A stretch of DNA of 64,000 nucleotides from Candidatus Omnitrophota bacterium (GCA_029560465.1 JAKQKX010000069.1:77021-141020), one strand, 5' to 3'; shown: positions 33,205-59,522, counted from the stretch's first letter. Notes: generated by a model from the sequence alone, not told the origin. A program made the numbers and translations.

Positions 33205-33633
33205 ATGATCAAGAATTCTAATTTGCGAAAACGGCTGTTTGCCAATGCCATGCATAAGGAAATTTTCTTCCTGGTTTTTGGCGCGGCTATTATTCCAACT
33301 GTTATCGTCGCTGTTTCCCTGTACCATTTTATATTTTATGTGACAGCGGAACAAATCGGGATCCCGGAGACCATCGCTTATCACATTGTCCCGGCCGCGA
33401 GCAAAGTTACGGAAATGCTTTTTCTGGTTATCCCGACGGTGATTGTATTTATTTTGGTCATTGCCTACCGTATTTCCCACAGCATTGTCGGCCCGTATGA
33501 CAGGATTATTCGGGAAATGAATGAGAGCTTAAACGGCCAGCGCAGGGGCCCTATTTCTCTTCGAAAGAATGACCGTTTTTGGCCGCTGGTTTGTGCTATT
33601 AATGACATCCTTCATAAGATGGAAAATCCTTAA
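33205..33633 (+). CDS. Small membrane protein (two TM), hypothetical
   Basis: Start 2 nt after the upstream stop; two clear TM helices. Confidence 0.45.
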   Translation: MIKNSNLRKRLFANAMHKEIFFLVFGAAIIPTVIVAVSLYHFIFYVTAEQIGIPETIAYHIVPAASKVTEMLFLVIPTVIVFILVIAYRISHSIVGPYDRIIREMNESLNGQRRGPISLRKNDRFWPLVCAINDILHKMENP

Positions 33634-33773
33634 TCCCGAGTGTGTTTCTTTTGCTTTTTTCTCCCCTCCGGGAAAGGGCCTTTCCCCGGGAAATTTTTTG
33701 GAAGCCTTGGGGCGGACTTTTCCGACGGGCAGATGGGGACAGGGAAGCCGGAGCATAAAAAAATAATAAATAT

Positions 33774-33802
33774 TTGACAAAACGGGAAAAATAGTGCATA
33801 AT
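33774..33802 (+). promoter_or_regulatory. Sigma-70-type promoter for the csp gene
   Basis: -35 TTGACA at 33774-33779, a 17-nt spacer, -10 CATAAT at 33797-33802 preceded by TG. Confidence 0.6.
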
Positions 33803-33836
33803 TTCCCTCGAGTAAAGCAAGGAAAAGAGATCTTAG

Positions 33837-33878
33837 ACCGCAAGGTAGAAGGTTACTTACCTTGCGGTTTTTGTTTTT
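33837..33878 (+). promoter_or_regulatory. Leader hairpin plus U-tract (attenuator-like) inside the csp 5' UTR
   Basis: 11-bp perfect stem ACCGCAAGGTA / TACCTTGCGGT (33837-33847 with 33858-33868), 10-nt loop, then TTTTGTTTTT. Sits between the promoter and the csp start codon. Confidence 0.5.
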
Positions 33879-33926
33879 GAGTATGCCATCATTTACTCAA
33901 GTTTTATCGAAAGGAGGCACTGAGTA

Positions 33927-34127
33927 ATGGCAAAAGGAATAGTCAAATGGTTTAACAACCAAAAAGGTTACGGATTTATTACTCCTGAATCTGGCGAAGA
34001 TGTATTTGTACACCACAGCGAAATACAGGGTAATGGCTACAAGACCTTGGAGGAAGGACAGAAAGTCGAATTCGAAATCGCTAACGGTCCTAAAGGCGAA
34101 CAAGCCAAGAATGTAGTTAAAATCTAA
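33927..34127 (+). CDS. csp: Cold-shock protein, CspA family
   Basis: [21 protein letters not shown]...VFVHHS with RNP1/RNP2 motifs; 66 aa; GGAGG Shine-Dalgarno. Confidence 0.95.
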
Positions 34128-34156
34128 CCCTGAACTTAAATAGATCCGGGTAAAAA

Positions 34157-34196
34157 AGACAGAACTTCAATAAAATGAGTTCTGTCTTTTTTTTCC
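34157..34196 (+). terminator. Rho-independent terminator after csp
   Basis: Stem AGACAGAACT / AGTTCTGTCT (34157-34166 with 34178-34187), followed by a T9 run. Confidence 0.75.
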
Positions 34197-47510: not shown

Positions 47511-47559
47511 AAAAAAGGGGGCAGCGTTTTTATTGAAAAAGCGCTACCCCCTTTTTTTT
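47511..47559. terminator. Bidirectional rho-independent terminator between convergent genes
   Basis: A-tract, GC-rich stem (GGGGGCAGCG...CGCTACCCCC with one mismatch), then T8. Confidence 0.65.
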
Positions 47560-59482: not shown

Positions 59483-59522
59483 AAAAAAACACGCCTCATA
59501 AGATTGAGGCGTGTTTTTTTGT
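59483..59522. terminator. Bidirectional rho-independent terminator
   Basis: A7, stem AACACGCCTCA / TGAGGCGTGTT, then T9. Confidence 0.8.

Follow-up and report, generated by a model that had tools for sequence, protein, structure and literature searches.

In the genome of an uncultivated Candidatus Omnitrophota bacterium, a gene for a cold-shock protein (csp) is separated from a strong upstream promoter by a hairpin that resembles an intrinsic terminator. The locus lies in a 64-kb stretch (GCA_029560465.1 JAKQKX010000069.1:77021-141020), the whole of which is here called the window. Does this hairpin end the operon upstream, or does it belong to the csp leader and, if so, what would a terminator be doing between a promoter and its start codon?

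The promoter, hairpin and U-tract ahead of csp

The promoter, the hairpin and the gene itself have the following layout:

33754-33773, plus strand: A/T-rich, UP-element-like stretch, at which the conserved block begins in relatives L002 and L004
33774-33802, plus strand: sigma-70-type promoter, TTGACA-17 nt-CATAAT, with 11/12 consensus positions (-35 at 33774-33779, -10 at 33797-33802)
33837-33847, plus strand: terminator 5' arm ACCGCAAGGTA, in which CCG and GG are (nearly) invariant across 44 leaders
33848-33857, plus strand: terminator loop of 10 nt, whose 3' part is predicted to pair with the linker in an alternative fold
33858-33868, plus strand: terminator 3' arm TACCTTGCGGT, completing an 11-pair stem with 94.4% of cells paired across 44 leaders
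33869-33878, plus strand: U-tract TTTTGTTTTT, containing UUUGUUU; the T-run is (nearly) invariant in relatives
33913-33917, plus strand: Shine-Dalgarno sequence GGAGG, read from the sequence and kept in the leader alignment
33927-34127, plus strand: csp gene, an ORF of 66 aa with a cold-shock domain (ATG at 33927, stop codon ending at 34127)
34152-34192, plus strand: bidirectional intrinsic terminator 3' of csp, with an A-run on one side and a T-run on the other

The promoter was described as near-consensus in the initial annotation, and the site is present with all but one consensus position; its -10 hexamer ends 124 nt before the csp ATG, in agreement with the distance of about 125 nt given there. 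Sites of this quality are rare: TTGACA-N17-TATAAT with at most one mismatch occurs four times in the 64 kb against 0.23 expected, a count reached by 0/100 shuffles. The TG noted upstream of the -10 is also present, but it abuts the hexamer directly (TG-CATAAT) instead of occupying the canonical TGn position, and it earned no extended -10 score in the scan. Judging by the -10 hexamer, we infer that csp transcription starts at about 33809-33811, approximately 7 nt past the hexamer, which places the hairpin about 27 nt downstream of the predicted start. A consensus scan of the window between the end of the U-tract (33878) and the csp ATG (33927) returned no further promoter-like site.

Between promoter and ATG, the perfect 11-bp hairpin followed by TTTTGTTTTT was recovered with all of its elements as first described. 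The stem at 33837-33868 is GC-rich and grows to 14 pairs with G-U and A-U extensions, around a loop of 8-10 nt. It has the sequence characteristics of an intrinsic terminator (a GC-rich stem of 5-14 bp, a short loop and an adjoining U-run), with a hairpin energy of -18.3 kcal/mol and a T-tail score of 4.59. Its discriminant score (d'Aubenton-Carafa-type) of 21.7 exceeds the 13.5 of the csp gene's own 3' terminator, so the label 'intrinsic-terminator-like' is borne out by every sequence property. Only three sites in the window (the csp leader, the csp 3' terminator and 59483) have a perfect hairpin of 11 bp or more with a loop of 3-12 nt, compared with an average of 0.1 in shuffles, and the fold of the leader has a z-score of -4.1 relative to dinucleotide shuffles. 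The arrangement of promoter, hairpin and U-tract is not due to chance. We aligned 44 related leaders by sequence only (alignment A2, used for both the terminator stem and the alternative fold discussed below). The discriminant score is positive in 34/44 of these, and one stem pair covaries extensively (CG 19, UA 11, UG 6, AU 4, GU 3). The terminator stem appears strongly supported by these comparisons.

The surroundings of the gene add several observations. Clean bidirectional intrinsic terminators, with a perfect stem between an A-run and a T-run, are found in the window at 34152-34192, 47514-47554 and 59483-59520; judged by such structures, the window organism clearly seems to use canonical intrinsic termination. 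A 14-codon ORF at 33883-33927, whose TAA overlaps the csp ATG, was considered as a leader peptide and rejected, because it has no Shine-Dalgarno sequence and its ATG is missing from the family consensus. The Pfam CSD domain was found on the protein identical to the window's Csp in 10 metagenome contigs. At the DNA level the csp coding sequence (33927-34127) keeps 99-99.5% identity even in lineages with neighbouring genes of only around 80%, indicating that its synonymous sites are almost frozen. This constraint perhaps reflects codon bias that goes with high expression, or else RNA structure reaching into the coding sequence. In 18 related loci a divergent second cold-shock-domain gene (33-43% identical) lies in tandem directly downstream of csp, as at L015:2779-2967, L018:2780-2968 and L048:2816-3004; the window has no such gene.

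Conservation of the leader and its use ahead of helicase genes

At least 20 metagenome contigs encode a Csp identical to the window's, of which ten syntenic contigs (L001-L010) were compared. In L002 and L004 the flanking genes are 80-86% identical (DNA) to those of the window, yet identity rises to 94-95% from some 20 nt ahead of the -35 as far as the ATG. The spacer from the upstream gene's stop codon to position -174, by contrast, is only 49-53% identical and hence unalignable. The conserved unit in these two relatives therefore starts at the promoter and not at the upstream gene. Folding of the window's upstream spacer (33630-33775) gave no signal (z = -0.08). With a conserved strong promoter upstream, the ATG downstream and a conservation footprint that begins at the promoter, the placement of the hairpin inside the csp leader stands.

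The leader extends well beyond the immediate relatives. A genome scan with the Csp protein returned 80 loci, essentially all from Candidatus Omnitrophota, with Csp proteins 71-85% identical to the query. A scripted search found a TTGACA-type promoter, a GC-rich hairpin (-12 to -20 kcal/mol), a T-run and the ATG in this order in 54/80, and the spacing from -35 to hairpin is mostly 59-63 nt across related loci. A covariance model of the core of the leader, from transcript start to U-tract (R1), matches upstream of csp in 56/80 Omnitrophota loci, including 13 outside the training set. In the window R1 has a single match, at 33805-33876 with 69.1 bits, and the 64 kb hold neither a second R1 match nor a second csp gene. 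Taken together, the sequence comparisons indicate a leader RNA that is conserved phylum-wide in Omnitrophota ahead of csp.

Around 20 of the 80 csp loci have no module and short leaders, which suggests that regulated and unregulated csp paralogs exist. A third class of csp leader is seen in L077, L089 and L090, in which a longer hairpin, AAACCG...CGGTTTTTTT, lies directly before the Shine-Dalgarno sequence and the anti-box described below is absent; L062 and L064 may belong to the same class, judged by eye only. L077 and L089 share metagenome-assembled genomes with the canonical L019 and L069, so several leader types may be present in one genome.

The same module is also found ahead of a different type of gene. 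R1 matches at L033:3419-3492, and an ORF for a 428-aa DEAD-box RNA helicase begins 14 nt further on; the match has its own TTGACA/TATACT promoter and a Shine-Dalgarno sequence within 4 nt of the U-tract. A metagenome scan with this helicase produced R1 matches in L091-L096, L099, L103 and L137, which lie upstream either of the helicase or of a small Cys-rich ORF that precedes it. The helicases with an R1 leader are the closest relatives of the L033 protein (at least 72% identity), and the alternative fold discussed below is predicted in 6/8 helicase leaders. Sharing of the module between csp and DEAD-box helicase genes would fit a cold-shock or RNA-chaperone regulon.

Further features of these helicase loci may be recorded here. 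Counted with its promoter, the L033 module just described (promoter, linker, hairpin and U-tract) is a second copy that spans L033:3390-3505, on a contig that also appears as L091 (1885-2000). The small conserved Cys-rich ORF (MMKVKTSHKGRKCRYPHCKHILSIYNHEAYCHVH..., zinc-ribbon-like) lies between module and helicase at L099:1787-1958 and L103:1200-1391 and in L097, L100 and L105; the arrangement suggests that the small Cys-rich protein and the helicase form an operon. On the 3' side of the U-tract, helicase leaders contain one to three tandem hairpin-like units, GCGCC..GGCGC ATGGTGGCGCAATACC..TTAGCGCCAGCCAT (L092:843-946, L093:1941-2000, L094:1894-2000 and L095/L096).

Predicted competing folds in the leader

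An attenuator needs a fold that competes with its terminator. The candidate here involves the linker between the RNA 5' end and the terminator:

33818-33834, plus strand: linker CAAGGAAAAGAGATCTT, 5' strand of a putative alternative (antiterminator-like) hairpin, predicted to pair with 33849-33864

In the window, the duplex between the linker and 33849-33864 has an energy of -10.2 kcal/mol (z = -2.2 against shuffled linkers). At the tip of the extended hairpin the terminator 5' arm closes on itself as an ACC-GCAA-GGT mini-hairpin with a GNRA tetraloop (33837-33846). A GNRA tetraloop fits in 35/44 leaders, with the 5' arm conserved as CC-G-N-R-A-GG, and constrained folding gives the same extended hairpin with CC-GNRA-GG at its tip in nearly all leaders. 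Linker-target duplexes average z = -1.64 against shuffled linkers over the 44 leaders, 34 of them falling below -1. Cognate linker-target pairs average -8.13 kcal/mol, compared with -6.38 for non-cognate pairs (permutation p < 0.0002). Reversed-sequence controls (around -5 kcal/mol) show a much smaller but present cognate effect, and a control with the 5' box (defined below) shows no cognate effect.

The order in which the two folds become favourable was followed by minimum-energy folding of growing prefixes, which approximates co-transcriptional kinetics only crudely. In the window, the nascent RNA has the alternative fold as its minimum-energy structure up to 59 nt, and in 41/44 leaders this fold stays ahead until the 3' arm is complete but for its last 4 nt. 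By the end of the arm the terminator has taken over in 33/44, and in 41/44 after three added U. Shuffling of the linkers lowers the share of cases won by the alternative fold to 29% when the prefix is 4 nt short of the arm end and to 14% when it is 2 nt short. The end of the alternative helix lies just 3 nt before the U-tract, so this helix might itself terminate weakly.

Evidence from the alignment is more mixed. In alignment A2 the alternative helices have 78% of cells paired, compared with 33-55% when the partners are slid. Pairs with changes on both sides are not significantly numerous (131/500 shuffles reach their count), even though the covariation score lies above all 500 shuffles, and we therefore regard an alternative fold that pre-empts the terminator as moderately supported. 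A column-wise scan of all pairs in A2 returned just the terminator stem and trivial purine:U-tract pairings, so that detection of the alternative fold comes from the alignment-free duplex tests and constrained folding. A simple antiterminator built from 'AAGG' repeats was also considered, and the column-wise scan did not support it.

The energies speak against a purely thermodynamic thermometer. Averaged over the 44 leaders, the terminator is more stable than the alternative fold by approximately 4.8 kcal/mol at 37 C; at 15 C the difference is 5.5, so that cooling does not narrow it, leaving such a thermometer unsupported outside the window's own lineage. In the window the two folds are nearly equal (-21.6 versus -20.1 at 37 C; -31.7 versus -31.3 at 15 C), and at 15 C the alternative fold is predicted to stay the minimum-energy structure through the U-tract. 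The general picture suggested by these models is one of kinetic competition between folds.

A second pair of mutually exclusive helices involves the region between the U-tract and the start codon:

33810-33816, plus strand: 5' box GAGTAAA at the predicted RNA 5' end, forming helix P1 with the anti-box in the RNAalifold consensus
33884-33899, plus strand: anti-box TGCCATCATTTACTCA, with the 5' box (open) or the start-codon region (locked) as alternate partners
33921-33932, plus strand: start box TGAGTAATGGCA, including the ATG and second codon, complementary to the anti-box and paired in the 37 C minimum-energy fold

RNAalifold, applied to 29 'short-class' leaders (alignment A1), predicts that P1 joins the RNA 5' end to the box after the U-tract and encloses the terminator. 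P1 has 10 pairs, with 90.6% of cells paired and compensatory changes in 8. The helix between anti-box and start box, spanning about -10 to +6 around the AUG, has 15 pairs, with 82.9% of cells paired and, again, compensatory changes in 8. Since the same anti-box pairs with both, the 5' box is a mimic of the start region. The leader has the defining element of an open/locked thermoswitch, namely an anti-start segment with two mutually exclusive partners, one of which is the initiation region. Prefix folding of the window sequence forms P1 first, and in the full RNA the locked state is favoured over the open state (-38.0 versus -34.7 at 37 C; -59.2 versus -57.0 at 15 C); the gap narrows from 3.3 kcal/mol at 37 C to 2.0 at 5 C with the locked state still ahead, and energy models of this kind cannot settle kinetics. 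In a 'long class' of 20 leaders there is an extra hairpin between terminator and Shine-Dalgarno sequence, and the start region GCAAACAATG has its complement in a box, CATTGTTTGC, that adjoins the U-tract on the 3' side.

In most relatives (e.g. L020:2463-2480) the anti-box is followed immediately by TTTACTATAAT, which contains a perfect TATAAT and could be the -10 of a second promoter. The equivalent stretch of the window, 33892-33901, reads TTTACTCAAG, which is not a -10.

A candidate attenuator and its place among known systems

On balance, we lean towards the view that the hairpin serves as the OFF element in a conserved leader RNA that regulates in cis and is used by csp and DEAD-box helicase genes across the phylum Omnitrophota. 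The best reading of the csp leader as a whole is a two-level device, in which transcription attenuation is combined with a translation switch akin to csp thermoswitches. The autoregulatory or temperature-responsive attenuator originally proposed for this locus holds up in so far as the csp leader contains a terminator-like hairpin with a predicted competing fold; the anti-start-codon layer and the phylum-wide conservation formed no part of that proposal.

We envisage the following sequence of events. Transcription would start near 33810, and the nascent RNA would first adopt the extended imperfect hairpin, in which the linker (33818-33834) pairs with the future loop and the distal 3' arm (33849-33864) while the 5' arm is held at the tip as the CC-GNRA-GG mini-hairpin. 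Only on emergence of the last 2-5 nt of the 3' arm would the GC-rich terminator become the better fold. Should refolding occur in time, with the polymerase on the U-tract, transcription would terminate to give an RNA of around 60-70 nt; otherwise the polymerase would read through. In read-through RNA the anti-box (33884-33899) would find its first partner in the 5' box (33810-33816), so that the ribosome site stays open; at equilibrium its partner would be the start-codon region (33921-33932), and translation would be locked. In both switches, then, the first-formed fold would be ON and the stable fold OFF. Cold slows refolding and should therefore raise expression, and abundant Csp or helicase should lower it by speeding refolding up; the net outcome would be cold induction with negative feedback.

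Gene context suggests that the signal is probably temperature or RNA-chaperone capacity. For the direction of feedback we favour chaperone-accelerated relaxation into the OFF folds, which would be negative. The opposite direction, in which Csp melts the terminator and feedback is positive, may equally apply as far as the sequence shows, but the anatomy of the leader fits at least as well a chaperone-aided relaxation from a kinetically trapped read-through fold into the more stable terminator. E. coli Csp proteins alter the efficiency of intrinsic termination (PMC9765468). Their documented action on terminators is antitermination, by CspA/C/E at metY-rpsO and by CspD at sRNA terminators (PMC9765468), which is the opposite of the feedback direction that we favour. 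A wider interpretation, which we offer tentatively and regard as doubtful in its full extent, is that the leader acts as a two-tier sensor of the RNA-remodelling capacity of the cell. Expression would then report the speed of escape from kinetic traps, ON under cold or chaperone shortage and OFF when Csp or helicase is ample, and would define a phylum-wide csp and helicase regulon without a dedicated protein regulator.

Of the rival readings, the one that survives best keeps control at translation or mRNA stability only: hairpin and U-tract would be mainly a structural and protein-binding part of a translational csp thermoswitch, the U-run a Csp site and termination incidental. P1 does enclose the hairpin, and both anti-box pairings covary. 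The window's U-tract carries UUUGUUU, the motif of the CspA-driven locked fold of S. aureus, and known csp leaders are translational switches. We nevertheless consider this reading unlikely, given that the hairpin scores as a strong terminator and that a GC-rich stem abutting 7-8 U is kept in more than 50 species. The stem-U module recurs, moreover, in leaders of csp paralogs and helicases without this arrangement of anti-box and start box (for example L033:3419-3492, with the Shine-Dalgarno sequence directly after), and a purely translational role leaves unexplained the linker complementarity that pre-empts the terminator.

It is also conceivable, if improbable, that the promoter, the first 60-70 nt and the terminator constitute an independent small RNA gene, with csp mRNA arising by leak-through or from another promoter. 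Such an RNA might act in trans, for example by exposing csp mRNA start regions with its 5' box or by titrating Csp with its U-tail. In favour of this reading, the locus has a strong promoter and a canonical terminator, the 5' box does mimic the start box, and the TATAAT just after the anti-box in many relatives is a possible second -10. The window, however, has TTTACTCAAG at that point and no other promoter-like site from hairpin to ATG, and in the helicase leader of L033 the Shine-Dalgarno sequence lies within 4 nt of the U-tract. Furthermore, the 5' box covaries with an anti-box that lies downstream of the terminator, a pairing that needs read-through molecules. The idea is in any case compatible with an attenuator, whose terminated leader could also act in trans.

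The last rival, that the hairpin is the terminator of an upstream operon (a 142-aa ORF ending at 33633) with csp transcription starting downstream of it, draws on the hairpin's terminator-like look and its position downstream of a co-directional gene; we reject it as extremely improbable on promoter position and conservation footprint, given a near-consensus promoter between that gene and the hairpin, fixed spacing in dozens of species, conservation that begins at the promoter and not at the upstream gene's stop codon, occurrence of the module with its own promoter ahead of helicase genes, and the lack of a promoter-like site in 33878-33927.

Returning to the two-level reading, the leader can be set beside known systems. 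Rfam searches of the window region (E up to 10) and of seven relatives (gathering threshold) returned just a sub-threshold, CDS-driven cspA match and tRNAs. The cspA thermoregulator RF01766 scored 35.5 bits against a gathering threshold of 78, with almost all of the aligned identity in the coding region. In the comparison with csp thermoswitch leaders by sequence homology, the enterobacterial family, the sole one in Rfam, thus failed the threshold. The literature that we searched held no described csp leader with an embedded intrinsic terminator and no Omnitrophota leader motif, and the Velamenicoccus metatranscriptome paper makes no mention of csp.

The closest functional parallel is with the cspB and cspC 5'UTR thermoswitches of S. 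aureus, which adopt open (O) and locked (L) conformations (Catalan-Moreno et al. 2021, PMC8034633). In that species CspA promotes the locked fold via a UUUGUUU motif in the cspB leader, and the paper reports no conservation of its leader beyond the genus (PMC8034633). Related switches occur in L. monocytogenes cspA and E. coli cspA, cspG and cspI (PMC13271884), and for S. aureus cspB/cspC and the three E. coli genes the evidence is experimental. The Omnitrophota leader resembles the S. aureus type in being a csp leader of about 110-160 nt in which an anti-RBS or anti-start segment pairs with a 5' segment or with the ribosome site, in carrying UUUGUUU within the region enclosed by the open-state helix, and in its expected ties to temperature and Csp feedback. 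It differs in having no sequence or Rfam relationship to such leaders (the Rfam comparison covering the enterobacterial family), in a locked state with the higher predicted stability at every temperature modelled, and in a promoter-proximal core common to DEAD-box helicase genes. A terminator with a competing fold also lies inside its open-state helix, a layer that we did not find described in the accessible parts of these sources.

A different precedent comes from E. coli transcription. The cold box, present in the 5'UTRs of cspA, cspB, cspG, cspI and csdA/deaD near the RNA 5' end, has the sequence UGACGUACAGA; it is short and functions in pausing, in contrast to a hairpin with a U-tract. It was reportedly proposed as a site of CspA-dependent attenuation or autoregulation (Jiang et al. 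1996, Bae et al. 1997, Fang et al. 1998). The window leader likewise has a promoter-proximal element common to csp and DEAD-box helicase genes and implicated in transcription-level feedback, but it bears no sequence resemblance to the cold box, and UGACGUACAGA is absent from 33803-33926 of the window.

With classical attenuators (riboswitch platforms, T-box, trp/pyr) the leader shares a 5'-leader terminator and a mutually exclusive upstream fold that forms earlier. The terminator-like hairpin was found between the gene's own promoter (from which the start site is predicted) and the csp start codon, and a conserved mutually exclusive fold was detected by alignment-free tests, with moderate column-level covariation. 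Unlike in those systems, no ligand-binding domain or leader peptide was found in the Omnitrophota leader, its sole upstream ORF (33883-33927) not being conserved. Its competing fold takes the 3' arm of the terminator and leaves the 5' arm as a GNRA-capped tip, and the proposed input is folding kinetics or chaperone capacity, not a metabolite. As judged from sequence, the leader is a device that would work like csp thermoswitches and classical attenuators without being a sequence member of any of them.

The leaders of csp genes are textbook RNA thermosensors, although the examples known to us act on translation or mRNA stability and come from few cultivated lineages. Omnitrophota are an uncultivated phylum of ultra-small bacteria. 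Here, a single leader appears to join an intrinsic terminator of canonical type, a rival fold that arises during transcription and an open/locked translation switch, and to have been reused on DEAD-box helicase genes. If this is correct, it would add a layer of transcription attenuation to cold-shock regulation and would provide a small, transferable element, about 120 nt long, under the control of temperature or chaperone level. The R1 model would then also serve as a marker for the cold-shock and RNA-chaperone regulon in Omnitrophota genomes.
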